A stretch of 64,000 nt of DNA, taken from the IMG/VR virus record IMGVR_UViG_3300045988_165036, positions 70,153-134,152 of that record. One strand, written 5' to 3'. The DNA comes from a virus. Position numbers and translations under genes: made by a program. The stretch's first letter is position 1. Each line of letters starts with the position of its first letter. The notes under the pieces were generated by a model, which worked only from the letters and a program-made list of their open reading frames with translations, searched no databases and was not told the DNA's origin. Shown here one piece after another: positions 2,826-62,695 of this stretch.

Positions 2826-3836
2826 ATGCTCACAGATGTTAAACAAATGTTAATAGAAAACCCAGAGCACATCGTGGAATTGCTCGAAAGGTTTGAGTTC
2901 TGCCACATCCATCTCAAACGAACAGAAATTCGGTTTGCCCGTAACGAAGAAGGTGGTCAGAACATCTCAATTCGGCTCGAAGATAATCCTTCAATTTATG
3001 TTAAAGATTTCGTAACAAATGAGAACGGCGACATTATCGCGTATATAATGAAAAGTCGTTCGGTGAAGTTTGTCGAAGTCTTGTCGGAAATCAAGAGCGT
3101 TCTCGGGCTTGGAGACGATTGGGAGCCCCCAAAGCGCGATATGTTGTTCGGTGGATTTTATGACCGAATTGGAGAGGATAGACATATTGAGATTACGACG
3201 TATCCCGAATCGATTATGGACCAATATGTCGATAAGGGAAATCGGCGCTGGCTCGATGATAACATTTCACTTGCGGTTCAGCACGAGTTCGGGGTCAGAT
3301 TTGACCCGATAGAAGACCTGATTGTGTTTCCGTGGAGGTCGCCCGTCGGAGGAGAGATTATCGCAGTAAAAGCTCGCGTTAATCACCCGTTGGAAGATGG
3401 TCAACAGAAATATTGGTATGTTTACAAGGGCGCCGTCAGTAATTCTCTTTATGGTATTATGGAGAATTATAGCGGACTGTTTGGAAACGAAATTTGTGTT
3501 GTTGAAAGCGAAAAAGCCGTCCAGCAACTGGCGACAATGGGATATCGAAACACAGTGGCTCTTGGGTCGAGCAATTTGTCAGAGGAGCAGGCTCGGCTAA
3601 TTATGACGCTTTCTCCGACTTCCGTTGTGTTCTTGTTGGACGAAGGACTGGAAAAGGAACACACGATGAAAAATGTGGAAACATTGCGTCAGTATTGCGT
3701 ATTAAGAGATTTGCCGATTCGTTGGTGGAATTGGACGAAAAGCTCGGTTGTTGATGGGAGCGGGAAGAATAGTCCGACCGATTTGGGGAAAGAGAGGTTT
3801 GACAAGGTTATGAGAGAGGAGCTAGAAGTGATTTAA
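2826..3836 (+). CDS. DnaG-like Toprim primase
   Basis: Toprim-like VVESEKAVQQL ... VVFLLDEGLEKE. Sits directly upstream of the polymerase. Confidence 0.6.
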   Translation: MLTDVKQMLIENPEHIVELLERFEFCHIHLKRTEIRFARNEEGGQNISIRLEDNPSIYVKDFVTNENGDIIAYIMKSRSVKFVEVLSEIKSVLGLGDDWEPPKRDMLFGGFYDRIGEDRHIEITTYPESIMDQYVDKGNRRWLDDNISLAVQHEFGVRFDPIEDLIVFPWRSPVGGEIIAVKARVNHPLEDGQQKYWYVYKGAVSNSLYGIMENYSGLFGNEICVVESEKAVQQLATMGYRNTVALGSSNLSEEQARLIMTLSPTSVVFLLDEGLEKEHTMKNVETLRQYCVLRDLPIRWWNWTKSSVVDGSGKNSPTDLGKERFDKVMREELEVI

Positions 3837-4795
3837 TGGGCGCATTTAAAGATATAACTGGACAGCAATTCGGAGACTTCATCATCGACTCTTTTGACCC
3901 GACAAAAGGTAAGTATAAATATTATTGGAATTGTCATTGTGTAAAATGTGGTTATAAAAAATCAGTAGAAGGAAGCAGTATTAGAGCCGGAAATAGTACA
4001 AGATGTATTTGTGATAAGTCTTTTGGACGAAGAGAAAGTCTCGGATACGAAAAAGATATATCTGGAAAAGTTTATGGTGGTTTAACTGTTTTGGGCTATT
4101 GCGACACGAAAAGCACACGTTCAAGATGGCTGTGTAAATGCAATTGTGGGAACGAGGAAGTTTTTAGTATTTCACAATTAAAAAGAAGAAAAAATCTGAT
4201 GTGTTCCCAATGTGTGGAAAAATATAAAGATATAAGAAATGTGATTTCAGAAGAAAATTTAGACTCTAATGGGATTCCAATAAATATTGTTCAATCTACT
4301 CAAAGAAAACAAAACAAATATGAAATTCAAAACGATGAGACTATTATCAACGATAAAATTATTGTAGATAGTAAGTTTATGGATTGTTTGAAATCATTCG
4401 ATAGATACATTAGTATAGACAGCCGTGGATATGCATATTTTTCATATTGTGGTCAAGATGTATATTTACACAGACTTTTGACAAACACCTCATTATTTTT
4501 CGATACGAATGGCAAAGACATAGAAATAATCGATCATATAAACAGAAATAGATGCGATAACAGAATTGAAAATTTAAGAACGATTAAAAAATCTGAAAAC
4601 TCCATCAATTGTTCAGTATATTCAAATAATAAAAGTGGGTATAAAGGTATTTCTTGGCTTGAAAGATTACAAAAATGGCAAGTGAACATTCAATACAGAA
4701 AGATAAATTATTATGTTGGCGTGTTTGAAAATATTGATGATGCAATTTTAGCAAGAAAACGAGCAGAAATGGATTTATTTGGAAAGGTGAATTAA
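3836..4795 (+). CDS. Free-standing HNH homing endonuclease with an AP2-like C-terminal domain
   Basis: DHINRNRCDNRIENLR..K.EN (HNH), then YKGISW...WQVNI..YVGVF...A..AR (AP2-like). Confidence 0.7.
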   Translation: MGAFKDITGQQFGDFIIDSFDPTKGKYKYYWNCHCVKCGYKKSVEGSSIRAGNSTRCICDKSFGRRESLGYEKDISGKVYGGLTVLGYCDTKSTRSRWLCKCNCGNEEVFSISQLKRRKNLMCSQCVEKYKDIRNVISEENLDSNGIPINIVQSTQRKQNKYEIQNDETIINDKIIVDSKFMDCLKSFDRYISIDSRGYAYFSYCGQDVYLHRLLTNTSLFFDTNGKDIEIIDHINRNRCDNRIENLRTIKKSENSINCSVYSNNKSGYKGISWLERLQKWQVNIQYRKINYYVGVFENIDDAILARKRAEMDLFGKVN

Positions 4796-4797
4796 AA

Positions 4798-7700
4798 ATG
4801 CAAAATCTTCATCGGCATACTTCGTATTCAAATGTTTGTATTGCAGATTCTGCGGCAACAAATGAACAATATGCCAAAAGAGCGGTAGAATTGGGTCACA
4901 AAGTAATTAGTAGCGTCGAGCACGGGTGGCAGGGATATTATTATCAATGTTATGAACTTGCTCAAAAATATAATCTCAAATTTGTTTTTGGAGCAGAGGC
5001 ATATTGGGTAAAAGACAGGAAAAAAGAATATGAAGAAATTGATCCATTGACAGGAGAACCGTTAAAAAATAAAGACGGAACAATAAAGGCGCATAAAGAT
5101 AACTCTAATTGTCATATATTACTTCTTGCAAAAACAGAAATCGGAAGACGCGCCATCAACAAAATTCTTTCAGAGGCAAACGAAACGGGGTATTATTTTA
5201 GACCCCGTGTCGATCTCGAACTTCTTCTTTCCCTCCCTCCTGACGATGTGGTCGTAACAACTGCTTGTGTGGCATATTGGAAATATGAAGATATCGAAGA
5301 TATTACTCTTCGGTTGTGGAAACATTTTGGAAAAAACTTTTATCTGGAGATCCAAGCGCATAAAACAGAACAACAGAGAGAAATCTCCCGTAGAATTCTT
5401 TCCTTGTCGCGAAGATATGGAATTGAAATGATTGTTGGTCTTGACAGTCATTACATTTATCCGGAACAGGCACAGGAGAGAGAATATATTCTTGAAGCAA
5501 AAGACGTCCATTATAAAGACGAAGAGGGGTGGTATATGGACTATCCCGACGACGAAGAGGTTATGAGACGTTTTATGGAGCAAGGAGTTTTTACAAGGGA
5601 ACAGGTTCAAAGAGCGATGGATAACACGGACATCTCTCTAACGTTTGATGATTATGCAAAAGACAATCCTGTTTTCAGCAAAGATATTAAACTTCCTACT
5701 CTTTATCCGAATCTTTCACAAGAAGAAAGAAACAAAAAATATAGTGTTCTGATTAGTAAGCTTTTTAGAGAGTATGCAGAGAAACATCACATTACGGGAG
5801 AAGAGTATAAGAGATATCTTGAAGGAATCAAAATGGAAGTTCAGACGGTTAAAGATACCGGAATGGCCGATTACTTCCTTCTCGACTATGAAATCGTCAA
5901 AAGAGCGATTGAAAAAGGGGGCGTTTTGACAGACAGTGGAAGAGGATGTTTTACGTCTGACGCAATGGCTTTAACGATGGGCGGAATCAAACATATTAAC
6001 GAAGTTAAAGTTGGAGATTTTGTAATAGATCAAAACGGAAATCCGCAAAAAGTTGTTAACACAATGGAATATGATTGCGATGAGGAAATAGTTCAACTTC
6101 TTTATGCATATGGACCAAATACTCATAATCCATTGATTTGCACAAAAGATCACAAGATCTTGATTCATAGAAACGGGCAAAATTCTTGGATTGAAGCCGG
6201 GAAAATTCAGCAAGGAGACTATGTTTGTTCTCCGAAAATTCATTTCGAAAATCGAGCACCTGAATATATTGATTTAAATGATTATAATGTTTTTGGGTAT
6301 GATTTTGACGACGAATACATTTACGAATATCGTCCAGCTGCAAATGGTGTTGTTGAATTTAACTCCATTGATGTTTCTAAACACATTGGATGTTCCAAGC
6401 CGTGGGTTTTGCAAGTCGTTAAAAATCCTAATCGCACGAAGTTTAAGCATCCCGAATATGTGGACAGATTATTGAAATATACCGGATTTAGTTCTCTTCA
6501 AGAATATAGGGATTATTTAAAAAACTCTCATGTTATCAAGATTAAGAGATTTATAAAAAACGACGAGCTGTTCAACACGTGGATTGGTATGATGTATGGC
6601 GATGGATGGGTTCGCGGCGCGAAAGAATCTACAGAGGTTGGAATGGCGTTTTCTACCTATGGACACAAACAGTCTTACAACAGAGAGATTTGTATTAAAA
6701 TGATCGAACGTTTTGGTGCTCCGTATAATTGTGCCATCCATAAAACAAAACAATTGGAACAAATTATTATGAAGAGCCGCATCGTTAATGAATTTTGTAA
6801 AAATTTTCTATTCACAAGTAAGAAGGGAAAGGCAAAAATCTTTAATCAAGATTTATTTTATCAATCCGAAAATAACTTAAGCGCGCTATTAAACGGTTTA
6901 ACGATTACTGATGGGAGCATGGGAAAAGAAAAAAGAAGAGACAGCTTTGACAACACGTCTCAAAGCATTGTTGGAGCATATAAAATTTTAGTGTCGGCAG
7001 TCTCTCCTTGCCCCACAAGTCTGCTTGTCAGAAACGCATACGAAGATAGTAGAGGATATCATTCTCAGACTGGTTATAAAATAAGAGTTATGAAAGATAC
7101 GGACACTCATGTGCTTTCGGCGTATAGAACTCTTTCTGACAACAACTATGTTTATCTTCCTGTTTCTCAAATTAAGGCAATTGAGAAAAGCAAACGAAAA
7201 GTATATGACATTACCGTTGAAAATTCCCACAGTTATGTATTAGATAGCATAGTTGTTCATAATTCATCAGTTGGATATTTCACAAACACTCTTCTTGGTT
7301 TTTCAAAAGTCGATAGATTTCAAAGTCCGATAACTCTTTATCCTGAACGATTTATTAGTAAAACAAGAATTCTAGAAACCCATTCTCTTCCAGATATTGA
7401 TATGAACTGGGGAACCCCCGAAATTGCAGAAGAAGCACAGAAAGAAATTCTTGGAGACGACCACGCAATTCCAATGATCGCCTTCGGAACCTGTAAAAAG
7501 AAGTCGGCGTTTAAATTGTTCGCTCGTTCTCAAAATATGGATTTCGAACTGGCAAACACCATCTCTTCGCAAATTGCAGATTATGAAGAAGCAGTTAAAA
7601 ACGCAGAAGATGATGATAAAGATCAGATTGATATTTATGATTTTGTAGATAAAAAATATTCCAACTATATTGAACAGAGCAAAAAGTATTGGGGCATTAT

Positions 7701-9402
7701 TATGGATAAGAAGAAAGCTCCTTGTGCCTTTCTTCTTTATCAAGGCAATATCCGAGAAGAAATTGGTCTGATTAAATGTAAGTCGGAATCAACAGGAAAA
7801 GAATTTTTAACAGCCGTTGTAGACGGAGCGATTGCAGAAAATTATAAATTTCTAAAAAACGATATTCTTTGTGTAAGTATTGTTCTTTTGGTTGATAAGA
7901 TTTATCGTAGAATTGGAATTCCGCACAAAACGGTTGAAGAACTGAAAGATTTCGTTAAAAACGATCCAAAAACTTGGGACATTTATAAAAACGGATATAC
8001 TCTTGGGGTTAATCAGTGTGAGCAAGTAAGTTCTGCAAAGAAAATGATGCGCTTTCAAGCAAAAAACATTTCAGAACTTTCGGCGTGGATTGCCGCAATT
8101 CGCCCTGCTTTCAAGTCGATGTACTCCAAGTTTGAATCGAGGGAATCTTTTAGTTATGGAATTCCTGCCTTTGACAAACTCCTACAGACAGAAGAACTTC
8201 CGCAGTCGTGGATTTTGTATCAGGAGCAGTCGATGTCTGTTCTTTCGTATGCAGGATTTCCGATGGATGAATGTTATGGAATCATAAAGGCAATTGCTAA
8301 AAAACACCCCGAAAAGGTTCGTCCGTTGAAGGATAGATTTATCGAAGGATTCAAAAAGAGGATTGTTACAGAGGAAGGAATTGAAGAAACTCAAGCGCAG
8401 GAAATGAGCGAACGGGTTTGGCAAATCATCAACGACTCTTGCGGGTACGGTTTCAATTCTGCTCACGCATATTGTATGGCAATCGATAGTCTTTCTTGCG
8501 CAATGTTGAAAGCGAATTATCCATACGAATTTTATGAGGTGCTTTTACAGTTCCATTCAGATAGAGGAGAAAAAGATAAGGTTGGCGCTCTAAAAGCGGA
8601 AATGAAAAAGGCTTTTGGAATTCAAGAAGGTCCATATCGATTTGGAGAAGATAACCGAAAGTTTAATGCAATTCCGGAAAGAGGAATTATTCAACCGTCT
8701 CTCTTGTCAATTAAGGGATTGAGTCAGGATTTGGCAAACGACCTTTATGAACTTTCTAAAACAAAACGATTCGATAATTTTATAGACCTGTTGAGAGAAT
8801 TCGATCATATGAAATCAATGAATGTTGCGAAGTTGGATACATTGATTAAACTCAATTATTTCTCGCAATTCGCACCTATTGGAAAACTTCTGAACATTGT
8901 CGAGCTCTATAATAAGTTCGGAACCAGCAAAACACTCAAAGAATCTGACGTTTTGTCTCTTCCAACGCCTATTCAAGAAGTTATTGCAAAATATACCGTT
9001 AAACCGAAAACACAGTATAAAATCACAGATAGCGACGGAATGCTCCGGGAACTCGCGGGGTTGGTTGGAGAACGCCCGATTACGATGATGATGCGGCTGG
9101 AATGGGAGCAACAGTATTTGGGTTATTGCGCTTCTACCGACCCATCGCAACAGGGAAGTTGGTTAGTTCTGGACGCCGATACTAAATATTCTCCGAAGTT
9201 GACAATTTTTTCTATTTGGAGTGGAGAACAGCGTGTTGTTAAAGTCTCGAAGCGCGACTTCCAATCCAATCCTCTCACCAAAGGTGATACAATTCGTCTG
9301 ACTATCGAACAACGTCCGAAGGCGAAGCTCGTAGATGGACAGTGGGTTAAGGACGAAAACGTTAAAGAAGATTGGCTAAAATATTATTCAATTGTAAAGT
9401 AA
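4798..9402 (+). CDS. dnaE: DNA polymerase III alpha-type replicase (PHP + DnaE core) interrupted by an intein
   Basis: PHP N-terminus HRHTSYS..VEHG. The GRG|SSVGYF junction corresponds to the DnaE GRGSAAGS motif. Overall size and order match DnaE. Confidence 0.9.
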   Translation: MQNLHRHTSYSNVCIADSAATNEQYAKRAVELGHKVISSVEHGWQGYYYQCYELAQKYNLKFVFGAEAYWVKDRKKEYEEIDPLTGEPLKNKDGTIKAHKDNSNCHILLLAKTEIGRRAINKILSEANETGYYFRPRVDLELLLSLPPDDVVVTTACVAYWKYEDIEDITLRLWKHFGKNFYLEIQAHKTEQQREISRRILSLSRRYGIEMIVGLDSHYIYPEQAQEREYILEAKDVHYKDEEGWYMDYPDDEEVMRRFMEQGVFTREQVQRAMDNTDISLTFDDYAKDNPVFSKDIKLPTLYPNLSQEERNKKYSVLISKLFREYAEKHHITGEEYKRYLEGIKMEVQTVKDTGMADYFLLDYEIVKRAIEKGGVLTDSGRGCFTSDAMALTMGGIKHINEVKVGDFVIDQNGNPQKVVNTMEYDCDEEIVQLLYAYGPNTHNPLICTKDHKILIHRNGQNSWIEAGKIQQGDYVCSPKIHFENRAPEYIDLNDYNVFGYDFDDEYIYEYRPAANGVVEFNSIDVSKHIGCSKPWVLQVVKNPNRTKFKHPEYVDRLLKYTGFSSLQEYRDYLKNSHVIKIKRFIKNDELFNTWIGMMYGDGWVRGAKESTEVGMAFSTYGHKQSYNREICIKMIERFGAPYNCAIHKTKQLEQIIMKSRIVNEFCKNFLFTSKKGKAKIFNQDLFYQSENNLSALLNGLTITDGSMGKEKRRDSFDNTSQSIVGAYKILVSAVSPCPTSLLVRNAYEDSRGYHSQTGYKIRVMKDTDTHVLSAYRTLSDNNYVYLPVSQIKAIEKSKRKVYDITVENSHSYVLDSIVVHNSSVGYFTNTLLGFSKVDRFQSPITLYPERFISKTRILETHSLPDIDMNWGTPEIAEEAQKEILGDDHAIPMIAFGTCKKKSAFKLFARSQNMDFELANTISSQIADYEEAVKNAEDDDKDQIDIYDFVDKKYSNYIEQSKKYWGIIMDKKKAPCAFLLYQGNIREEIGLIKCKSESTGKEFLTAVVDGAIAENYKFLKNDILCVSIVLLVDKIYRRIGIPHKTVEELKDFVKNDPKTWDIYKNGYTLGVNQCEQVSSAKKMMRFQAKNISELSAWIAAIRPAFKSMYSKFESRESFSYGIPAFDKLLQTEELPQSWILYQEQSMSVLSYAGFPMDECYGIIKAIAKKHPEKVRPLKDRFIEGFKKRIVTEEGIEETQAQEMSERVWQIINDSCGYGFNSAHAYCMAIDSLSCAMLKANYPYEFYEVLLQFHSDRGEKDKVGALKAEMKKAFGIQEGPYRFGEDNRKFNAIPERGIIQPSLLSIKGLSQDLANDLYELSKTKRFDNFIDLLREFDHMKSMNVAKLDTLIKLNYFSQFAPIGKLLNIVELYNKFGTSKTLKESDVLSLPTPIQEVIAKYTVKPKTQYKITDSDGMLRELAGLVGERPITMMMRLEWEQQYLGYCASTDPSQQGSWLVLDADTKYSPKLTIFSIWSGEQRVVKVSKRDFQSNPLTKGDTIRLTIEQRPKAKLVDGQWVKDENVKEDWLKYYSIVK
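5947..7263 (+). mobile_element. Intein (439 aa) with a LAGLIDADG homing endonuclease
   Basis: Starts at Cys (GRG|CFTSDAMAL) and ends VVHN|S. Two LAGLIDADG-like blocks: WIGMMYGDGW and LLNGLTITDGS. Confidence 0.85.
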
Positions 9403-18816: not shown

Positions 18817-20107
18817 TAGTCGTGGGATGAATTGCGCTTAGAATGTTATAAATTAAACAATATATTAAAAATCAAAAAGGAGGTGAAGGGCGTGGAAAAG
18901 GCTTATAAATACCGCATATACCCAAACGAACGGCAAAAAGAAATAATTGCAAAAACATTTGGTTGTTGCCGATTTGTATATAACAAATATCTTGCAGAAA
19001 AGATTGAATTATATAAAACCGAAAAGAAAAACATAACATATGTTAAATGTGCAAAAGCAATGTCTGAATTGAAAAACGAGCTTGAATGGCTTACGGAAGT
19101 CGATTCCACGGCTCTTCAATCCTCGTTAAAAGACTTAGATAACGCTTATAAAAAATTTTTCAAAGAACATGCGGGTTATCCAAAATTCAAAAGCAAGAAA
19201 GATAATCATAAGTCTTACAAATCTAAATACACAAATGGTAATATAGAATATCTGAACAACCACATTAAACTACCGAAACTTGGTTTGGTAAAAACGAGAA
19301 ACAAGTTAATACCGCAAGGAAGGATAGTTAATGCAACAATATCACAAGAACCAACTGGAAAGTATTTTGTATCGTTGTGTTGTGTGGGCGTGAATATTCA
19401 GCCATTACCAACCACAAACAATTTGGTCGGTATAGATTTGGGGATTAAAGAATTCTGTATAACCAGTGATGGTGAGCTTGTGAACAACCCGAAATATCTT
19501 AAACAATCTCTTGACAAGCTTGCGAAAGTGCAGAGAGAACTATCTCGAAAAACAAAAGGTGGCTCTAACCGCAATAAAGCAAGAATAAAAGTTGCGAGAT
19601 TGTACGAGAAGGTTTCTAATCAACGAAGAGACTTTTTGCAAAAACTTTCAACGCAAATAATAAAAGAAAATGACATGATTTGTCTCGAAGATTTGCAAGT
19701 TAAGAATATGGTTAAAAACCATAAACTTGCACGAGCAATCAACGATGTTTCTTGGTCGGAGTTTGTAAGAGAATTAGAATATAAAGCTCGTTGGTATGGA
19801 AGGACGGTAATTAAAGTCAGCAAATTCTTTCCGAGTTCACAGACTTGCAGTATTTGCGGTTGTAAAAATGCAGAAACAAAAAGTCTTAAGGTTAGAGAGT
19901 GGGATTGCCCCGTTTGTCACGCACACCATGACAGAGATGTAAATGCGGCGATAAATATTTTAAACGAAGGATTAAATGTTTGGCGGAATGAGAAAAATAT
20001 GTTATAATACAAACAACCGTTGGGACAACGGGGATAGCTTGGTAAATATTTCGACAGTGGTCGGAAATTCCCAAGAATCTCACGACTAAAGTCGCGAGAG
20101 GTTCAAC
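18817..20107 (+). mobile_element. IS200/IS605-type TnpB-only element (copy 2). Ends are inferred.
   Basis: Left-end hairpin CCCGTGGCtttaGTCGTGGG; right-end hairpin TCTCACGACtaaaGTCGCGAGA followed by GGTTCAAC. The left end is conserved with copy 3. Confidence 0.55.
18892..20007 (+). CDS. tnpB: TnpB RNA-guided nuclease, copy 2 (GTG start after GGAGG)
   Basis: [20 protein letters not shown]; [24 protein letters not shown]; CSICG..CPVC. Confidence 0.9.
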
Positions 20108-30144: not shown

Positions 30145-31650
30145 ATGAAATTATTAAACGATACTAAAAATAATGCCGATACTAGTAATACTGAAGATTT
30201 AGAAAGTTTGCTGAATGATTTTGATCGAACTCTAAATCCAAATGCAGATCATGCAGATCATAACAACATGCGATCAAACGATGTGCGGTTAGAAGACAAG
30301 AAACACAAAAACCCAAATTGGAGAAAAGAGAACGAGAATCTTTCGTGTTACGCTCTGTCAAGATATTCCAATGAACCGGAAGATGATTTTGATTATTTCG
30401 ATCTGAATGCTTCATTGAAACAAATTCAAAAAAATATCATTATATCAAAAAAGGCTGAAAGTTTAGATATTGATTTATCAAAATTGGAAACTAATCACTT
30501 GTATAAAAACTGGAAAGAAGTTTGTGCGGATTTAAAAATTTCTTATAATGGCAACGGTCGGAATACCATAGAACAAAAGAAAATTGTTTTGGAAAATACA
30601 AAATATGAAAAGTGTGGAAATTCATATATATTTTATGAAATCAATCCGAATTATAAAAACGAGTTTTCTAAAAATAATGAAGTTACAAGGGTCAATTGCG
30701 TGGAAGCCATATTATCAAATGTTTTTTCGTCCGCGAATAATCAGCCAATTGCCTTGACAGCAAAATGTTGGTTTGAACTTCTTGGGCTAGTTGATGAAAA
30801 TTATTCTCCGTATAATAAAGAAAATAAAAAACGGTTAATGGCAACCGTAGAAAAAGATATACAAGAATATGAAATGACGATTGAGGATGGTTCTCCGATT
30901 ATCAGCTCCGCTGTTAAAACATCAACCGATTTCTTTTATACTAATACACAGGCTCGATTCAAAGAAGCATTATTCAATGCCTTTGATTCTCTCCAAAAAA
31001 GAGGGGCAATTATAGTTGATACTGTTGTCGGAGGTTTCCCATTAACTAAAGAACAAGTGGAAACAATAAAGGGAGCGGTTGAAAAAGATCCAGATGTTTC
31101 AATATATGATTTGAATATAAGGCTAAAAAGACAGATGATGTCGCTCGGAAGTTTAAATACGAAATATCTTGAATGCGAAGAAGAGACATTAAAGGATTTA
31201 AAAATGAATCGAACGGATTTGAAAATATTACGCAAGAATCCGGGTTTAGCTAAAAAATATTATGGAAGACTTGGAATTAAAACTGCTCTAAAAATTGGGA
31301 TGATTTATATATCCAGATTTTTCATAGTTTATCCATATTCTGATAACTGTAAAAAAGTATTCAAGACCCAATCGCAAGACAAAGATGTTCGAGCTTATGT
31401 TAAATATTTAATGCAGAGAGGAATTTTTGAATCGGCTAAAAACAAGATGCTGAAAGCAGACGGAAAAGGCGATTTCGGAACAGATAAATTTCTTGTTGCT
31501 AATTCGTATTTAATTGAAAAATTAATTAAAGAAAATAGAGAAAATTCAGAAGAAATGGTGAAATTTGGTATGATAAATGCTCAAAGGTTCGAAAAAAATA
31601 TTTCGGATGTTTTGTATACAGATGATGTAAACGATGGAGGAGAAGAATGA
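30145..31650 (+). CDS. Hypothetical protein (501 aa), very AT-rich
   Basis: AAGGAGG RBS; no motif recognised. Confidence 0.6.
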   Translation: MKLLNDTKNNADTSNTEDLESLLNDFDRTLNPNADHADHNNMRSNDVRLEDKKHKNPNWRKENENLSCYALSRYSNEPEDDFDYFDLNASLKQIQKNIIISKKAESLDIDLSKLETNHLYKNWKEVCADLKISYNGNGRNTIEQKKIVLENTKYEKCGNSYIFYEINPNYKNEFSKNNEVTRVNCVEAILSNVFSSANNQPIALTAKCWFELLGLVDENYSPYNKENKKRLMATVEKDIQEYEMTIEDGSPIISSAVKTSTDFFYTNTQARFKEALFNAFDSLQKRGAIIVDTVVGGFPLTKEQVETIKGAVEKDPDVSIYDLNIRLKRQMMSLGSLNTKYLECEEETLKDLKMNRTDLKILRKNPGLAKKYYGRLGIKTALKIGMIYISRFFIVYPYSDNCKKVFKTQSQDKDVRAYVKYLMQRGIFESAKNKMLKADGKGDFGTDKFLVANSYLIEKLIKENRENSEEMVKFGMINAQRFEKNISDVLYTDDVNDGGEE

Positions 31651-32456
31651 TAGCAGAAAATTTAAGCAGCAAGCAATATATGCTAAAATACGGAATAAAT
31701 ATAGAGGTTGGTCATGTCTACAAAAATTTTTTAGAAGTTTTGGAAGCAGTCGGTCTTCCTGTAGAGCTTTCTCAAAGTAAAAGTAGTAAAAGAAGAATTG
31801 TAGAGAGTTTAAAAGAACACACTATTTATAGAAGATCGGGACAAAAGTGGGTGTTCCAAGAAAATAATTATGGAAAAATTAAAGAATTTCCAGAGTTAGA
31901 AGAAGGGGAGGCTCTTTTGCCATATGATGATCGAGGGATATATTACATTAGCAATTTTGGAAGAATCTGGAATAGAAAAAATCGTGAATGGATTTCGAAA
32001 TATGAATATAAGGGAAGATATAAAGTGAGTCTTTATAGCCATCCACATATATTATCAAGAGTTGTTGCTATAACATTTATTCCGAATCCAGATAATAAAC
32101 CAGAGGTAAACCATAAAGATGAAAATCCAAAAAATGATAGAGTAGATAATCTTGAGTGGGTAACAAGAAAAGAAAATTTAAATTATGGCACAAGAACTCA
32201 AAGAGCTTCTGAAACCAGAGCGAAAAATCATCCCGGGAGCGGTTTCAATAAAGGAATGTCTCCTTCAGAAGAGGTTAAACAAAAGATAAGAAACACAATT
32301 AAAGAGAAATATCCAGAAGGTTGGGGTTCTTGGAATAAAGGGAAAAATAGAAAAAGATCTTCAAATTTTAAACAAAAAGCGATTCAGAAAATCAAAACAT
32401 TAATTCTTCAATATAATATATCTTTCGAGGATATTTATCCGCCATCAGACATTTAA
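31647..32456 (+). CDS. HNH homing endonuclease
   Basis: NHKDENPKNDRVDNLEWVTRKEN. Confidence 0.7.
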   Translation: MIAENLSSKQYMLKYGINIEVGHVYKNFLEVLEAVGLPVELSQSKSSKRRIVESLKEHTIYRRSGQKWVFQENNYGKIKEFPELEEGEALLPYDDRGIYYISNFGRIWNRKNREWISKYEYKGRYKVSLYSHPHILSRVVAITFIPNPDNKPEVNHKDENPKNDRVDNLEWVTRKENLNYGTRTQRASETRAKNHPGSGFNKGMSPSEEVKQKIRNTIKEKYPEGWGSWNKGKNRKRSSNFKQKAIQKIKTLILQYNISFEDIYPPSDI

Positions 32457-33214: not shown

Positions 33215-33296
33215 GGCTCCGTGGCGAAATCGGTAAACGCATCCGATTTAAGATCGGATACCTGTGGGTTTAAGGGTTCGAATCCCTTCGGAGCTA
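33215..33296 (+). tRNA. tRNA-Leu (anticodon UAA), class II with a long variable arm
   Basis: Hand-folded: acceptor GGCTCCG/CGGAGCT, anticodon arm TCCGA-TTTAAGA-TCGGA, variable stem ACC/GGT, T-arm AAGGG-TTCGAAT-CCCTT. Confidence 0.8.
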
Positions 33297-34160: not shown

Positions 34161-34237
34161 TGTCGAGTAGCCAAGCGGTAAAGGTGACTGGTTTTGACCC
34201 AGTTATTACGTAGATTCGAATCCTGCCTCGACAGCCA
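34161..34237 (+). tRNA. tRNA-Gln (anticodon UUG), CCA encoded
   Basis: Acceptor TGTCGAG/CTCGACA (U1:A72, as in E. coli tRNA-Gln), anticodon arm ACTGG-TTTTGAC-CCAGT, T-loop TTCGAAT with an A:C closing pair. Confidence 0.7.
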
Positions 34238-49521: not shown

Positions 49522-49981
49522 TTTCCTCTTCCGGACAATCATCTTCTAATTCGCAAGAATTGATTTCATAATAATTCTTTCCGACCACTACAAAATAATC
49601 ATTAATGTCATTTTCGTTTGATTGGAACACTGCGATAAAAGTATCTCCAGTTCCGTTATAACAATATCCGCAATTACTTCTAAGATATGTCTGAACCGTC
49701 TCATCAATCATATTGCGAATTTCTTCGTCTGGAAGTTTTACAGCTCCTTCAGATACACCAAACCGAAAATACTTTTTCGGAAATGCTTCTCCGGCAGAAA
49801 GCGGCTTATGAAATGCTTTGTCTTTAGTTTTGGGAAGCAACATTAACTGTTCTTCCCCACAGCAAGGACAACAATAGAGACTTTCGTCAGTTTCAATTTC
49901 TATCTCTGCTCCACAATTATTACAAACATAATAAACCATCTTTTTTTCTTCTTTTGGTTTTCCCTGTTTAATAATTCTCAT
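49508..49981 (-). CDS. Hypothetical Zn-ribbon protein
   Basis: GGAGGAAGGAG RBS; CNNCG..CPCCG. Confidence 0.5.
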   Translation of the reverse strand: MRIIKQGKPKEEKKMVYYVCNNCGAEIEIETDESLYCCPCCGEEQLMLLPKTKDKAFHKPLSAGEAFPKKYFRFGVSEGAVKLPDEEIRNMIDETVQTYLRSNCGYCYNGTGDTFIAVFQSNENDINDYFVVVGKNYYEINSCELEDDCPEEENEDE

Positions 49982-50038
49982 TTTCTTTTTCTTCTCCTTC
50001 CTCCAGAACCTCACCGGTTTCTGGATCAATAATCATTT

Positions 50039-51300
50039 GGTCAACAACCCACAAGCTAAGGCTTGATGGGCTTGTAGCTCGATACGACTTCGTTATTACA
50101 TTTAATGGTGTAATAATTTATTCGTAAGCATAAACTACCTATCAGGACATGAGCTTGCCCCTAAAATTCTTTTTCCCTCTGTTAAAATATTCTTTGCAGC
50201 ATTAACATCTCTGTCGTGTACTGTACCGCACTCTGGACAGGTCCATTCTCTAATCCACAGTGGTTTCCTTCCTGTAACACGCCCACAACACGAACAAATT
50301 TGCGAACTGGGAAACCATCTATCAATTTTCTGGACTGTTCGACCTTTATCTAATGCTTTATATTCTAACATATTTACAAATTCAGACCAGCCAACATCAG
50401 AAATGCTTAATGCTAAATGATGATTGTTCATAAGACCTTTTACATTCAAATCTTCTAAAGCTATCACTTGGTTCTCGTTTGTAAGCCTATAGGAAATTTT
50501 ATGTAAATAATCTTTTCTTTGGTTGGCGATATGCTGATGTAACTTAGCAACTTTTAATTTCTGATTATTATAATTATTGCTACCTCGCTCCATTTTACTT
50601 AGCTTTCTTTGTTTTCGTTTCAACTTCGGCAATTCTTTTTTCAAAGATTGTAATGCCGGAAACTTCTCACCATCAGAACAAATAACCAAGTCTTTTAACC
50701 CCAAATCAATACCGACTTCCTTATTTACTGGCTCTAATTTTTCTGTTATTTCTTCATCCTTCCATAGAATAGCAATATAAAATTCACCAGTGGGCGTCAT
50801 AGAAATAGTACATAATTTTGCAGTCCCAGTTTTATGGCGATGATTAACAATCTTTACATATCCCAGTTTTGGCAACTTAATGTTATTTTCTGTAACTGGA
50901 TAACCAAAAGAAGTCATGGTTTTATAACTATTTTTAAGCTTCTTTTTACTTTTATACTTTGGAAATCCAATATTTTTTTCTTTGAAAAATTTAAAAAATG
51001 CAGATTGCAAATCCATCTGAGTAAAACACAATGCCATAGAGTCAACTTCTTTTAACCATTCAAATTCTTTTTTATAAAAAGCAGGAGTATTAATTTTGCT
51101 CTTTTGATATTTTTTATAATATTTAATATTATCATATAACGCTTGATTCCAATACCATCTACAACAACCAAAAGTTTTAATTATGATCTGCTTTTGTTCA
51201 TCAGCGGGGTAACATCTTATTTTGTATGCCTTAATAATTTTTACCTCCTAATATAACATTCTATTTTTTGCAATTCCTCCCATCGGCTAAAGCCAATGGG
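50039..51300 (-). mobile_element. IS200/IS605-type TnpB-only element (copy 3). Ends are inferred.
   Basis: Left-end hairpin CCCATTGGCtttaGCCGATGGG starts right after the upstream stop codon. Right-end hairpin CCCATCAAGCcttaGCTTGTGGG followed by TTGTTGACC. Confidence 0.5.
50135..51238 (-). CDS. tnpB: TnpB RNA-guided nuclease, copy 3. No canonical start; ATT ATT lies at the expected position after GGAGG.
   Basis: (I)[22 protein letters not shown] upstream of the track's internal Met. [24 protein letters not shown]; CSCCG..CPECG. Confidence 0.8.
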
Positions 51301-51301
51301 A

Positions 51302-52437
51302 TTACTCGTCAAACTTCTTTTGAACCTGTTTCGGAATCTTTTTCAACTTAAATCGTCTTCCAAGATATTCTTCTCCGTCCGCGCACTCAACCGGCGCATA
51401 TGCGTCCTTTTCTTCAATAACATCTAAAATCTGTTCGTCAAGCAAACTCCAAGCAAAGTCCCAGTTGAATTTTGAATAACTCTGCGAAAGTGCTTTAATG
51501 TATGTCAATGCGTCCATCGAAGCCATTTCAAGTTCATCATATTCGGTACGAAGTTCATCTCGAATCGAATCAAGAATTTCCATTCGAATTTCGTCTGCTT
51601 GTTCTTCGCCAGAATTGTTAAAAATCTGATTGACAATTGTGATTGCTTTTTTGTCATTGAATTTCCGATACATATCTCGGAATTTGCCAAGAATCTCCGG
51701 GTCGAACTTATACTCATCAAGATCATAATACGGAAGTAGGCTGACGCAATTTTTGTTGTACTGTATGTCAAAATCCGTATCTTCAACCATATGGCACAAA
51801 ATGTTCATCGTACAATTCGTGTTTAAAACCGGGGAAAATTGATGATAATTTCTGATAAAATTTTTCTCTTCTGGCGTTTTGTTCTCTTTTGTCAGAAGTT
51901 TCTTTAATCTCGTCCGATATGTGCATTTTGCGATTTCGTCGTATCTCTTTTCGTGTGTTTTATACGAAGTATTCAATTCTGGATATAAATATCTAAAGAA
52001 ATACGGTTTCTTGTTAATAACAAGGGAGTTATGATATCTCTTTGCTTTAATTACATCCTCCGGGTCATCTTTTTCAACCTTCTGTGTGCGAAGCCATTCG
52101 TCTTTCGGAGGGCCTTTTGCTTCAACGCCCTTAATTCGGTCGATTTCCTGTCCGTTGATTTCGCGAAGAAGCTTTTTACGCAACTCTATTTCATCTCGCT
52201 GACGTTTTTGGTCTGGTCTCTGGAACAATGGAAGCATTGCTTCAAGCTGCGTGGAATAATTGCTATATGTTCCGACCTTCGTTCCAAATCCACGCAAGTC
52301 TGTTTTTACGAATTCACGGTGGCAGATTTTGTGAACAGGAGCCGATTTTTTGTCGTAGCTAATTGGATTTGTCACATCTTTCATCGAACCTTTTAGGAGA
52401 ATTTCGTTGTCTGATGACATTACTAGGTCCCCATCGA
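51302..52437 (-). CDS. YonO-like / RdRP-fold single-subunit RNA polymerase, exon 2
   Basis: Begins ..(F)DGDLVMSSDNE. In frame with exon 1 after intron removal. Confidence 0.6.
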
Positions 52438-52692
52438 CTGTTATACCCTCGGTTTCCCGATATTTATTAGGGGAGTAGACTATACGATCATCGTTGATAT
52501 TATCTCGGATGCCTTTGGTAGTCGTTGAGAGCTATGGCTTTTCATATCTCTGCGGATTGTCCAATCCAAAACGTTTTTACTTGATCAAATTGGCGTTATC
52601 CAATCTTTAAGTAGTTTTGGCTCTAAGGAGTTTCCCGCATATTCAGGATTTTTATTACGCATCACTACGTAAGCGACCTCGACGTTTTCTTA
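52438..52692 (-). mobile_element. Group I intron (255 nt, no ORF) in the RNA polymerase catalytic motif
   Basis: Exon GCGATT pairs with intron GGTCGC (U.G at the splice site). The last base is G. Core strings CTCAACGACTA and GATCGTATAGTCT are present. Splicing yields SDSDFDGD. Confidence 0.65.
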
Positions 52693-54346
52693 AATCGCTG
52701 TCCGAATGTCTTAATGTGCTCAAATCATAAATCGAATAAATTATTCCGCTTTCAATCCATTTATACCATTTATCCGCTTCGCTACTTTTATATAACTTAC
52801 AATGATTGACTTCGTGTTTGTCCAGAAGCGGGGACCGACATAACACAATGTCTTTTTCAGGATCATATCTCTTGTTCCAGAAATTTGAATAAATATATTC
52901 TCCAGGAACCTCGCCTTTTGGATCAAGTCCCAACGCACTTCGACACTGTGCAATTGGATCTGAAATCATAAACGAATAATTGCCTCTAACCCAAATCTTT
53001 CCAATCTTTGCTTGAATAATACTTCGAATCAAGTTACGATAGATCTTTCGTTGAACATATGTGTCTTTTAGAAAGTCTGTATTTTTTACGACAGCCTTCA
53101 TTGCGAGGCTTTGCGCTCTCGTATAAACATCGTTATACTCAATCTGATAATTTTCTGAAAATCCCCCAAGCGAATACAGCATCGCATATAACGGATCTCC
53201 GGAGCAAACCTTCTTAATCCAATCAATTGTTGGTTGAACAAGGTTTTTAATGTCATCTTTATCGATATTCAAAACCTGAATTATCTGATAATTCGCAAGA
53301 ACCCATTCATCATCAAACTTTCGGTTATATCTCGAAACGCCCCAACCAATTTGTGCCATTTCGATATATTCAGAATAATCTTCCCAGCTTGAATAATACT
53401 TATGCATCTTGAACTGTGATTCTGAAAGAAGAACATCGATTTCGTCAACTTTATATGGATGCCCCCATTTGTCATAAATATATTCAATTCCATTTTCTTT
53501 CGCATATGCGTGAAAATCGAACGGGACAAGGTTTCCTTTAACGAATATTGAACGAACGACATATGAACTTGCAACATATCCAAGATTCATTTCCTGTGAC
53601 CATTTTTGCGCCATTTCCGGAGAAACGAGTCCTTGCCCATCACAAGAATTCATAGTGATATCGAGAATTCTTTCTTCAACCTTCTTCTTTCCATTTTCGT
53701 CCGTTGTGATCCAGTCCAACTTTTGGTTTGGAACTATTGTGAAAAAGTCTTTAATGACACAAACGCGCGGAGTTGAGACCCACAAAATTGATGATGTAGA
53801 AAGAGCAAAATATGCTGAAAGTTTAGCAAGATTGAACTCTTTAACGCGATTGTTGAAATCACACATTAATCTATTAGTTAATTCTTCTGCGATTTCGGCA
53901 TTAACCATTAAAACACAATTATGTCTAATTTGTCCAGCAGATGCACTAAATCGAACATATCGGATTCCATTAACATAAAAGCCGGATTTTGAAATTCTTT
54001 TATATTCTTCTTTCTTTTTTACTTCAACAACAACGAAGTCTTTAACAAATAGTGTATTTAGGATTGCTTGCCAAAATATTTTAGCTTCTTTACTTCGTCC
54101 CTTTTTTTTTGCTCTATGGAGAGAGTTTCGAAGAAATTGAATATTTGAAAAAATTTCTTTGTAATTTCTGTTGTCGCCACGAATTTTTCGTGCTTGGTCA
54201 AACGCAATATTATCTCCGCAAGAAACTAAGCATCCTTCTTGCGCCGCTCGGCGTGGAGTATAATCTTTAATATCTAAATTATTTTCGCAAATAAATGCGG
54301 AAGAGAGCTTGTAAATCTGATACAAATTCTGTTCTCTAATTGGCAT
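52693..54346 (-). CDS. YonO-like / RdRP-fold single-subunit RNA polymerase, exon 1
   Basis: VLCRSPLLDKHEV (compare beta-prime NRAPTLH) and ..LRHSDSD|F at the exon end. The track ORF continues into the intron for 12 codons. Confidence 0.6.
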
Positions 54347-57556: not shown

Positions 57557-57632
57557 GCCTTTTTAGTTCAGTTGGTGGAACGTTTGACTGTTAATCAAAA
57601 TGTCGTTGGTTCGAGTCCAGCAAAAGGCGCCA
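57557..57632 (+). tRNA. tRNA-Asn (anticodon GUU), CCA encoded
   Basis: Canonical 76-nt cloverleaf folded by hand: GCCTTTT/AAAAGGC, GTTC..GAAC, TTTGA-CTGTTAA-TCAAA, GTTGG-TTCGAGT-CCAGC. Confidence 0.85.
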
Positions 57633-60798: not shown

Positions 60799-60942
60799 TT
60801 TCGGTTTATAATAAAAAGTCAAATGTCGAAATCAACGCCCGTCGCTTGGAGCAACTTGAACAATGGGGTTCAATTATTCAATACGGGAGGCAAAACCCCG
60901 TTTGGTTTATTGAACAAATTTTGGGATGTCCGTTATTAGACT
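60795..60942 (+). CDS. terL: Terminase large subunit, exon 1
   Basis: ..WFIEQILGCPLLD, then the first base of a Tyr codon. Confidence 0.65.
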
Positions 60943-62695
60943 TAGATGTTTGTTACAAATAGGTCGCTTACACAGAAATGTGTTTGAATAATAATCTATC
61001 GAAATGCTGGAACTTCGTAAAGCTTACATACCAAAGCAAAGTGATGAAAAACGCACAGGTGTGATGGTTGCGAAAGCGTAAAAAAGTTGTGAGATGGAGT
61101 ATGGTTAAATCCTAACCTCTGTATAAAAATCGAAAATCAGCAGGAAAGCCCCGAAAAGGGGAATCCTCAACGACTAGAACGAAAGTTCGTAGCCAACAAG
61201 TGATTGGTTGGCGAAGTGGTAGACGTCCATTGTAGTGGACGAAGATATAGTCTGCGCTCATATGAAAGTATGAGGTGGTTTTAATAGTCACAGAACAGGA
61301 GTAGCGTCCTGTATAACTAAACCGATATAATTGCGGGACAGAGGGTAGCCCCCTTTGTTGAATTGCTGGTAACAATTTAACTTACCGCATTTATATATTT
61401 TACACTGACTTTTTACCAGAAAGGAGGTGCAACGATGATTAAGTCTTTTAAAATTAGATTATTCCCAACAAAAGAACAAGAAGAATTAATGTGGAAACAC
61501 GTTAATTCGTGCAGATTTATTTGGAATTACATGCTCGAAAAACAGATTTCGAGAGAAAACAATAATGAGAAACCTTTATCGGCATATGATATGATAAATT
61601 TGATATCTCCGATGAAACAACAAAAAGAGTTTGAGTGGTTAAAAGATGTGTCCAATAGCAGTTTGTGTAAAACTTGCTTAGATTTAGGTAGCGCGTTTTC
61701 TAGATTTTTTAAAAAGCAAAATAGATTTCCGAAATTTAAATCGAAAAAGAACCAAAGACACTCTTGTCCCGCTAGAAACGAACGTCTTTATTTTATTGAT
61801 GACAGTAGGTTGTTTATTGAAAAAATCGGTAAAATTAAATATAAATCTGATTTAAGTTTTTCAAAAGATCAAAGATTTTTGAATGTTAGATTAATTGAAA
61901 ATATGGGAAAATGGTTTGTCTATTTTGTAATGAAGTGCGAGAATCAAGCACCGGTTTTGACAGATAAGCCAATGGGAATAGATTTAGGAATAAAAGAGAC
62001 TATGGTAGTCGCTTATGGTAATGAGTCTATAATCTTTCACAATATAAATAAAAGTAAAAAAGTGAGAGAATTAAAGAAAAGAATTCGTAATTTACAAAGA
62101 GTGATTTCTCGTAAATACGAAGCGAATCGTGTGGGCAAAAAATACATTAAAACCAATAATATTATAAAATTGGAGAATAAATTAAGAAAATTGTACGCGC
62201 GATTGAACGGAATCCGATATAATTATATTCATCAGTGTACTCATAACCTTATTTCATTATTGCCTTGTAGAGTCGTAATGGAAGATTTAAATGTTATGGG
62301 AATGATGAAAAATAAACATCTTTCAAAAGCAATACAAGAACAGTGCTTTTGTGAGATAATTCGGCAAATGAAATATAAGTGTGAATGGAATGGAATACCA
62401 TTTATACAAGTAGATAGGTTTTATCCAAGTAGTAAAACCTGTTCTTGTTGTGGTACTATTAATAAAAGATTAACACTTTCTGACAGAACTTTTATTTGTC
62501 CAGAATGCGGATTTACAATTGATAGAGATTACCAAGCGGCGCTTAATTTAATGAGATACGAAGTTTAATTACAGAGACTTCGGTCTTGAGGTATCGTTGT
62601 ACCTTTATGCTGTGGAGCGTCATATAAACTTAAGTAGCTTTATGCGAAAGAGGACGCTGTGAATCAGTGAGTTTAGTTTTTTCTAAACACAACGG
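60943..62695 (+). mobile_element. IStron: group I intron core (about 60943-61400) + tnpB + 3' omega-RNA / 3' splice-site region
   Basis: See the first finding (60943-62695). Confidence 0.7.
61435..62568 (+). CDS. tnpB: TnpB RNA-guided nuclease, copy 4 (inside the terL intron)
   Basis: IKSFKIRLFPT..CRFIWNY; [24 protein letters not shown]; CSCCG..CPECG. Confidence 0.9.
   Translation: MIKSFKIRLFPTKEQEELMWKHVNSCRFIWNYMLEKQISRENNNEKPLSAYDMINLISPMKQQKEFEWLKDVSNSSLCKTCLDLGSAFSRFFKKQNRFPKFKSKKNQRHSCPARNERLYFIDDSRLFIEKIGKIKYKSDLSFSKDQRFLNVRLIENMGKWFVYFVMKCENQAPVLTDKPMGIDLGIKETMVVAYGNESIIFHNINKSKKVRELKKRIRNLQRVISRKYEANRVGKKYIKTNNIIKLENKLRKLYARLNGIRYNYIHQCTHNLISLLPCRVVMEDLNVMGMMKNKHLSKAIQEQCFCEIIRQMKYKCEWNGIPFIQVDRFYPSSKTCSCCGTINKRLTLSDRTFICPECGFTIDRDYQAALNLMRYEV

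Follow-up and report, generated by a model that had tools for sequence, protein, structure and literature searches.

Why should the gene for a phage RNA polymerase be broken within the codons of its catalytic site, and can a single protein still be made from it? The question is raised by a 64,000-nucleotide (nt) stretch of viral DNA (positions 70,153 to 134,152 of IMG/VR record IMGVR_UViG_3300045988_165036; hereafter, the window), in which a polymerase gene resembling yonO of phage SPβ appears on the minus strand as two open reading frames (ORFs) that part inside the aspartate motif DxDGD. The answer that we consider very probable is that a 255-nt, ORF-less group I intron splits the gene for a single-subunit RNA polymerase of the YonO/QDE-1 type in a large (∼110-170 kb) gut phage, immediately after the first base of the phenylalanine codon of DFDGD. 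Such an intron had been proposed in an initial annotation of the window.

Examination of the ORF list and its translations shows that the first ORF (54346..52655, minus strand, 563 amino acids [aa]) has a C-terminal part reading ...CRSPLLDKHEV...LRHSDSD, followed by twelve codons that are read from the intron (LRKRRGRLRSDA), and that it is closed by two consecutive stop codons (UAAUAA, intron nt 36-41). The downstream ORF (52420..51302) has (F)DGDLV in frame just upstream of its start, with TC GAT GGG GAC CTA GTA ATG at the beginning of exon 2 encoding (F)DGDLVM. Excision of 52692..52438 (255 nt, minus strand) produces GAT T|TC GAT GGG GAC and restores SDSDFDGD, in an ORF of 929 codons in which DFDGD occupies aa 551-555; the predicted spliced junction is GACAGCGATT|TCGATGGGGAC. 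Exon 1 (52693..54346, minus strand) contributes 551 full codons and one further base, the first of the Phe codon, ending ...LRHSDSD plus T, and is co-linear with the uninterrupted homologous proteins P0001 and P0002. Exon 2 (51320..52437, minus strand) runs from (F)DGDLVMSSD... to ...KKIPKQVQ, at which point homology with the uninterrupted alleles breaks.

The intron itself (52438..52692, minus strand) is identified by an Rfam alignment, a helix check, covariation, an nhmmer search and its exact absence from related alleles. DNA alignment of the encoding contigs clearly shows that exactly these 255 nt are missing from two uninterrupted alleles, L004 (91% DNA identity) and L005 (79%). At the protein level, P0001, which is 95% identical to the spliced product, reads ...ASDSDFDGDICLSSD..., and P0002, which is 86% identical, reads ...HSDSDFDGDLVMSSD..., matching the predicted junction at every residue; both carry SDSDFDGD(LVMSSD) without interruption. 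The intron coordinates and the SDSDFDGD junction given in the initial annotation are therefore exact. The intron-bearing allele is also found elsewhere. Locus L006 has the same intron with only two differences in 255 nt from the window copy, and protein P0029, from a different metagenome, terminates ...SDSDLRKRRGRLRSDA, corresponding to the same intron-bearing allele, in a cluster of 36 member sequences. The 255-nt intron contains no ORF of at least 80 aa, consistent with its having been described as ORF-less.

The insert has the parts that define a group I ribozyme, and every helix in the window copy was verified base by base. P1 is formed by six base pairs (bp) between the 5' exon GCGAUU (52698..52693) and intron GGUCGC, placing the splice-site U52693 in a U·G pair, and P10 by 6 bp between the 3' exon UCGAUG (52437..52432) and intron CGUCGA. 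The P10 strand lies directly 5' of the P1 strand, and together they make up the internal guide sequence (52673..52684, minus strand; intron nt 9-20), with the P1 strand at 52678..52673 and the P10 strand at 52684..52679. The last intron base, nt 255, is G52438. Next comes P2 (nt 21-27/32-38), 7 bp capped by a GUGA loop, and then P3 (nt 46-48/179-181, 3 bp), P4 (nt 54-59/137-142, 6 bp), P5 (nt 64-66/131-133, 3 bp), P5a-c (nt 73-127, with 7, 5 and 6 bp in P5a, P5b and P5c) and P6 (nt 143-150/157-164, 7 of 8 positions paired). The sequences CTCAACGACTA and GTATAGTCT are both found in the core and together make P7, GACUA/UAGUC at nt 170-174/211-215. The remainder consists of P8 (nt 182-185/201-204, 4 bp), P9 (nt 221-223/245-247, 3 bp) and P9a (nt 233-236/241-244, 4 bp with a GAAA loop); the structure model of the window intron shows neither P7.1 nor P7.2 in the interval from P7 to the 3' strand of P3. 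The splice after a U, the GCGATT/GGTCGC pairing with its U·G, the terminal G and both core sequences, all noted at the outset, are thus all present.

In order to assess whether these helices are maintained by evolution, IMG/VR was searched with a 15-mer from P7/J7-3 as bait, and 40 of the 119 returned loci contained a full core. A family alignment was built from 25 non-redundant loci, the window and a copy from Clostridium phage c-st (27 sequences), with the structure drawn from another member, L062. Standard pairs fill 94.2% of cells, compared with 75% when the alignment is shuffled and at most 48% when the pairing partners are slid. Changes on both sides of a pair, that is compensatory changes, are seen in 27 of 41 pairs (214 cells), including the P3/P7 pseudoknot context, and none of 500 shuffles reached the observed percentage paired or the covariation score. 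Separate support is obtained for each of P3, P4, P5, P5a, P6, P8, P9 and P9a; P7 itself is invariant in the family because its sequence served as the bait. A profile hidden Markov model made from 20 members, leaving out the window and its nearest relative, finds 52651..52441 with E=1.2e-39 (nhmmer); like the exact 255-nt gap in L004 and L005, this is well outside what chance would produce. Locus L030, which belongs to the same ribozyme lineage and occupies the same site, has both halves of the guide altered along with its exons (P1 GUGACU/GGCCAC, P10 UUGAC/GUUAA). Other members sit in nrdD (at the glycyl-radical motif), in tape-measure genes and in DnaE-like genes, and since they interrupt such genes, the family represents genuine phage introns. 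In addition, the 3' ∼45 nt comprising P9/P9a recur at 94-100% identity in 210 GenBank phage records, within unannotated segments of split genes, Twort-like and SPβ-like phages being among them; one such segment lies between terminase fragments of phage Twort and another inside the split yonO of phi3T. Taken at the level of sequence, the assignment of the insert as a group I intron, as first proposed, is supported by P1 and P10, by the terminal G and by the covarying P2-P9 core.

The 3' module CUACUCCCCUAAUAAAUAUCGGGAAACCGAGGGUAU (52446-52482, minus strand) is near-identical in introns of Staphylococcus, Listeria, Enterococcus, Bacillus, Lactobacillus and Brochothrix phages; the remainder of those GenBank phage introns cannot be aligned by BLAST.

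Whether the interrupted gene is a single polymerase gene was examined with the spliced protein as query. There are at least 776 homologues at E<=1e-10, nearly all of them single proteins of 920-975 aa. Several comparisons cross the junction in one piece: Pfam RdRP (PF05183) over aa 111-601 (33.1 bits against a cut-off of 23.8), phrog_8308, and SPβ YonO, which aligns by BLASTP as a single segment with 28% identity over 549 aa (E=2e-39) and likewise as one segment by tblastn. The two ORFs, then, do not fall into unrelated families. The halves do match two separate PHROGs families, phrog_25339 and phrog_35857, showing that other phage records are annotated as split. R504, P506, D549, D551, D553, G554 and D555 do not vary among 48 homologues, so that the intron does lie among the most conserved codons of the gene, as had been stated. 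An R-x-P motif (CRSPLL) precedes DFDGD in the spliced protein, and the corresponding motif of YonO is DNDGD at 535-539.

The predicted structure points the same way. An AlphaFold model of the uninterrupted P0002, used as an 86% identical stand-in, has a mean predicted local distance difference test score (pLDDT) of 88 and a predicted template modeling score (pTM) of 0.82. Foldseek aligns it with maize and Arabidopsis RDR2 and with Neurospora QDE-1 at E=1e-15 to 1e-18 and a template modeling (TM) score of ∼0.45 over ∼930 columns, the best values being 2.5e-18 for RDR2 and 2e-17 for QDE-1; weaker matches are to the two-barrel polymerases of phage P74 (gp62), phage P32 (gp64) and the crAss-like phage phi14:2. 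A sequence search of the PDB with the spliced protein returned nothing. Megablast of the polymerase gene against GenBank phages matched only the 3' 50 nt of the intron, indicating that there is no close cultured relative, and no relative turned up when GTDB genomes were scanned for a prophage or host. Experiments have established YonO of SPβ as a DNA-dependent RNA polymerase that acts on late genes, and mutation of its Asp triad abolishes RNA synthesis (PMC5467207). The BLASTP and fold matches agree with the initial identification of a YonO-like enzyme, and the data as a whole support the view that the spliced gene encodes a single two-barrel RNA polymerase of the YonO/QDE-1 type, of which the two ORFs are the halves.

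The best available surrogate for splicing data is the pattern of substitution across the exons. Between the window and L006, both of which bear the intron, synonymous divergence (dS) is 0.49 and the ratio of nonsynonymous to synonymous divergence (dN/dS) is 0.037, with similar values for exon 1 (0.040) and exon 2 (0.032). Both exons have thus been under strong purifying selection in a gene that carried the intron, and the insert must therefore be removed at the RNA level.

Several points weigh against this interpretation. Splicing itself is predicted from sequence. The match to Rfam Intron_gpI (RF00028), a comparison called for in the initial annotation, is an end-to-end alignment (model 1-253) at 52702..52456 with E=0.0043 in a 701-nt search, but its 21.3 bits are under the gathering score of 50, and two Rfam scans of the whole window, one at the gathering threshold and one permissive, missed the intron that the local scan found. 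The gathering score is a curator's cut-off and not a structural definition, and it was on account of the sub-threshold score and the whole-window misses that the defining group I anatomy was tested directly. P3 has just 3 bp in the family register, and P8 deviates from that register. The minimum-free-energy fold is only modestly more stable than shuffled sequences (z=-1.94) and recovers P1 and P2 but not the pseudoknotted core, a modest z-score being expected of a pseudoknotted ribozyme. The window intron carries no endonuclease ORF, leaving "homing" in the strict sense unsupported. DNA-dependent activity and a late-gene role would be extrapolated from a YonO that is 28% identical. Finally, the gene is further truncated by an insertion sequence, which may bear on the fitness of this allele.

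Of the alternatives, the one that survives best accepts a group I intron and holds that it does not act autonomously in vivo, such that a protein cofactor from host or phage is needed and production of the polymerase is conditional. Many group I introns require chaperones or maturases, and the short P3 (3 bp) and idiosyncratic P8 would suit such an arrangement. However, the set of helices is complete, with GNRA-type loops on P2 (GUGA) and P9a (GAAA), a large family of ORF-less phage introns shares the same compact design, and no candidate cofactor is evident nearby. We regard a need for a cofactor as unlikely.

A second alternative is that the intron is a dead, non-splicing remnant and the polymerase gene a pseudogene in this genome. 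It gains from the sub-threshold Rfam score and from the presence of a second disruptive insertion in the gene, at 51319..50040. This is an IS605-family insertion of 1280 nt with tnpB only (50040..51319, minus strand), seen as a gap of exactly 51319..50040 when L004 is compared with the window by blastn; its tnpB ORF (50135..51037, minus strand) matches Pfam OrfB_IS605 and Cas12f1-like_TNB. The insertion severs the last 23 codons (now at 50039..49971) from the polymerase ORF. The displaced ancestral 3' end, QMIIDPETGEVLEEGEEKENENY plus a stop (49968..50039, minus strand), matches the C-terminus of P0001, and the present C-terminus, KKFDE plus a stop (51319..51302), is supplied by the insertion, so that the ORF ends ...KKIPKQVQ and then KKFDE. 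Accordingly, the length of ∼929 aa first assigned to the spliced protein stands, but its last five residues come from the TnpB insertion sequence. The lost 23-codon tail is poorly conserved and modeled with low confidence (low pLDDT), and its loss is therefore probably tolerated. Against a pseudogene there is further the dN/dS of 0.037 over both exons of two intron-bearing alleles at a dS of 0.49, the intact state of all core helices, the fit of P1 and P10 to the present exons, and the occurrence of the same intron allele in independent metagenomes (L006 and the 36-member P0029 cluster). A decayed gene with an inert intron is thus very improbable. An IStron identity was considered for the 3'-end TnpB element and rejected, as only ∼100 nt separate the exon end from tnpB and there is no ribozyme signal, making it a plain insertion sequence.

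It is extremely improbable that the polymerase is genuinely split, with the 563-aa and 372-aa ORFs translated apart and then assembled, as for the split β' of some phages and cyanobacteria. The halves are indeed filed as separate proteins, both in GenBank (CST179/CST178 of c-st) and in PHROGs (phrog_25339/phrog_35857), and an ATG is found 18 nt into exon 2. Yet the break lies inside a codon of DFDGD, and separate translation would omit D553, G554 and D555, all invariant in the 48 homologues; mutation of the corresponding Asp triad of YonO abolishes RNA synthesis (PMC5467207). Furthermore, the spacer is a conserved ribozyme and not an intergenic region. Any other kind of element, be it an intein, a group II intron, a miniature inverted-repeat transposable element or an insertion sequence, can practically be dismissed despite the abundance of such elements in this genome (a DnaE-like intein, TnpB insertion sequences and an IStron-like element), as group I is the sole Rfam match, the insert has no transposase ORF (no scan was made for target duplications or terminal repeats), an intein is ruled out by the in-frame stops at intron nt 36-41, and 255 nt is too small for a group II intron.

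Related loci were examined for insertions in the DxDGD codons; 50 of them, from IMG/VR, lie mostly on phage contigs of 50-170 kb. Insertions in this motif were present at 12 fetched loci (from IMG/VR, one ENA metagenome and GenBank) and fall at two points 5 nt apart, such that related phages hold at least five other introns within five bases of the site used in the window. The first point, site A (GAY T^TY GAY GGN GAY), is occupied by one ribozyme lineage in the window, L006 (255 nt) and L030 (262 nt). A second lineage at site A, starting ...CAGGGUCCGC..., comprises ORF-less inserts of 313-317 nt in L023 (5673-5989), L026 (5631-5944) and L028 (5631-5943), and larger inserts with ORFs that contain a GIY-YIG-like motif in L015 and L017 (1047 and 1032 nt) and in L016 and L018 (947 and 948 nt). 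The GIY-YIG-like motif of L015-L018 was read by eye; Pfam gives only NUMOD3 for these ORFs, at or just under the cut-off. The second point, site B (GAY TTY GAY^GGN GAY), is occupied in c-st by a 317-nt member of the window's lineage (nhmmer E=1.9e-24, full length), in L002 by a 948-nt intron with NUMOD4 and HNH_3, the HNH being confirmed by Pfam, and in L014 by a 1174-nt intron with LAGLIDADG_3, also confirmed by Pfam. The two sites of YonO-like genes thus host no fewer than two lineages of ribozyme, together with endonucleases of three families. Further insertion sites lie near aa 626 in the yonO of phi3T and Goe14 and near aa 645 in L031.

With regard to the second lineage, Rfam gave no match when L026 was searched; its members (L023, L026, L028 and L015-L018) share the terminal 45-nt P9/P9a module of the window intron. 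The phi3T yonO insert (L058 3158-3572) is ∼415 nt long and ORF-less (Rfam group I, 19.7 bits, E=0.01), and that of Goe14 (L003 4483-5787) has a GIY-YIG ORF. Both records list the pieces of the split gene separately, as yonO_1 and yonO_2.

Occupancy also differs among close relatives. Among alleles 94-97% identical in protein, some lack an intron, while others carry the ORF-less type or one with a GIY-YIG-like or LAGLIDADG ORF. An insertion sequence that is 99.8% identical and lies at the same 3'-end position is common to the window, L015 and L016, but their introns differ, and turnover at the site must therefore be recent. The flanking exons show a footprint of their own. Between the window and L006, mismatches amount to 0.8% within 60 nt on either side of the intron, compared with 10.2% elsewhere (P=3e-5), whereas between the window and the empty site of L004 they amount to 41.7% within 30 nt on either side, compared with 8.5% elsewhere (P=5e-12). 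Such patterns fit a gene-conversion-type spread. Homing, which the initial annotation considered typical of this placement, is accordingly supported only indirectly, by presence/absence polymorphism and a co-conversion-like tract, the window intron itself having no endonuclease. No endonuclease gene is evident near the intron, the closest HNH_3 ORFs being at 3836-4795 and 31647-32456. Movement of the window copy may have involved recombination between co-infecting phages, breaks made by endonucleases of rival introns, or an ancestral endonuclease ORF that was since lost.

The empty site of L004 (∼4440-4530) has 25 mismatches in 60 nt, many of them synonymous, despite an overall identity of 91% for this allele. 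Resistance to an endonuclease could account for the variant, as could an earlier conversion that removed an intron and left a scar.

How the polymerase would be made from the interrupted gene, including catalysis, its timing and the mechanism of mobility, we infer to be as follows. The gene would presumably be transcribed by host RNA polymerase, and ribosomes entering the intron would halt at the UAAUAA, ahead of the catalytic core, while the RNA would adopt the P1-P10 group I architecture. Guanosine bound in P7 would attack 3' of U52693, in the U·G pair of P1, and the freed 5' exon, held by P1 beside the 3' exon held by P10, would then attack after G52438 to give GAU U|UC GAU GGG GAC. Only the spliced mRNA would encode a complete Asp triad and an active polymerase; unspliced mRNA would give a 563-aa fragment from which two of the three catalytic Asp are missing. 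If SPβ YonO is a guide, the spliced polymerase would transcribe the late genes, and phage transcription may in that case depend on splicing, as initially suggested. Having no endonuclease, the intron would most likely spread or persist through recombination and co-conversion of flanking exons among co-infecting relatives, and it may exploit, or block, the endonucleases of rival introns at this motif.

It is a classical finding that group I introns interrupt essential phage genes at conserved codons, with examples in td, nrdB and nrdD of T4, the DNA polymerase genes of SPO1 and Bastille, Twort, and bnrdE and bnrdF of SPβ. Similar to these, the window intron is a compact ribozyme that sits in highly conserved codons, has an in-frame stop near its start and is present in some relatives but absent from others; unlike them, it has a YonO-like RNA polymerase gene as its host and is without an endonuclease ORF. 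Closer parallels are the intron in gp210 of ΦPA3, which lies beside codons for catalytic Asp residues in the gene for a virion RNA polymerase β subunit and whose endonuclease is a weapon against co-infecting relatives (PMC11620839), and the mobile intron between gp273 and gp274 of 201φ2-1 (PMC2919709). What they share with the window is a phage RNA polymerase gene with a group I intron close to its codons for catalytic Asp. However, the ΦPA3 and 201φ2-1 genes are multisubunit, β-like, and belong to nucleus-forming jumbo phages of Pseudomonas, whereas the window gene is single-subunit and of the QDE-1/YonO type, with its intron in a β'-type DxDGD loop and without an endonuclease. The ΦPA3 weapon model would be applicable to the endonuclease-bearing introns of L002 and L014-L018.

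SPβ YonO itself shares the R-x-P motif and the DxDGD triad with the window protein, which is ∼90 aa longer and comes from an uncultured gut phage; SPβ yonO is uninterrupted. Clostridium phage c-st has the same ribozyme lineage in the same motif of its CST179/CST178/CST177 genes, annotated "YonO-homolog N-ter only / C-ter only", although its 317-nt intron lies 5 nt further downstream (DMD|GD, site B) than that of the window, and the c-st record annotates no intron. In a survey of jumbo phages, BAE47877, the N-terminal fragment from c-st, is cited as YonO-like, and no intron is mentioned (PMC7824862). Our literature searches combining YonO and intron found no report of introns in YonO-like genes.

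A broader proposal, which we put forward tentatively and think doubtful as a whole, is that rival homing introns contest a hotspot in the DxDGD codons of YonO-like polymerases, where the window intron may be kept as a protective "intron vaccine". Its occupancy of site A would destroy the recognition sequences of the GIY-YIG-like, HNH and LAGLIDADG endonucleases with which rival introns, at site A or site B, cut the polymerase gene of co-infecting relatives, making it the defensive counterpart of ΦPA3 gp210, and late transcription may also become conditional on folding of the ribozyme.

By itself, a selfish intron in an essential gene is a real but fairly ordinary case, and what it adds is the DxDGD hotspot and a correction of annotation. 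Selfish introns have repeatedly targeted the codons that are most conserved in a minimal two-barrel RNA polymerase, and these codons offer a natural system in which to follow intron turnover, endonuclease competition and exclusion among co-infecting gut phages, in parallel with ΦPA3/ΦKZ. RNA self-splicing would be needed for the phage to make its own polymerase and, if the analogy with SPβ YonO applies, for its late transcription. For annotation, c-st, phi3T, Goe14 and many gut-phage contigs list a YonO-like gene as two or three "hypothetical" ORFs with no relation to one another, and recognizing the introns recovers the full-length polymerase.

Selfish elements are abundant in the window genome beyond the polymerase gene. 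A second group I intron at 60941-61274 (plus strand) scores 70.6 bits in Rfam against the threshold of 50 (E=7e-18), having been missed by both whole-window scans. It forms the first part of an IStron-like element of 1753 nt (60943-62695, plus strand), in which the intron is followed by a TnpB gene (61435-62568) and a RAGATH-18 RNA (62609-62670). Excising 60943-62695 joins ...ILGCPLLD|YQKFMIMGGW...SRGSGKS, and the product matches phrog_2, terminase large subunit, over the junction (E=1.6e-22). Altogether there are four TnpB genes in the 64 kb. Rfam RAGATH-18 matches lie directly 3' of two of them, at 2701-2773 for the gene at 1441-2649 and at 62609-62670 for that of the IStron-like element, and a weak "Ref70" match (20011-20076) follows the gene at 18832-20007. 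Guide RNAs of TnpB derived from RAGATH-18 have been published (PMC11061315), and the arrangement in the window is consistent with this. A DNA polymerase III alpha-like protein of 1534 aa (4798-9402, plus strand) contains an intein at aa 441-822 (Pfam Intein_splicing, 46.8 bits; PT-HINT), and the two HNH_3 ORFs mentioned above are free-standing. The window also contains three tRNA genes, at 33215-33296, 34161-34234 and 57557-57629 (plus strand).

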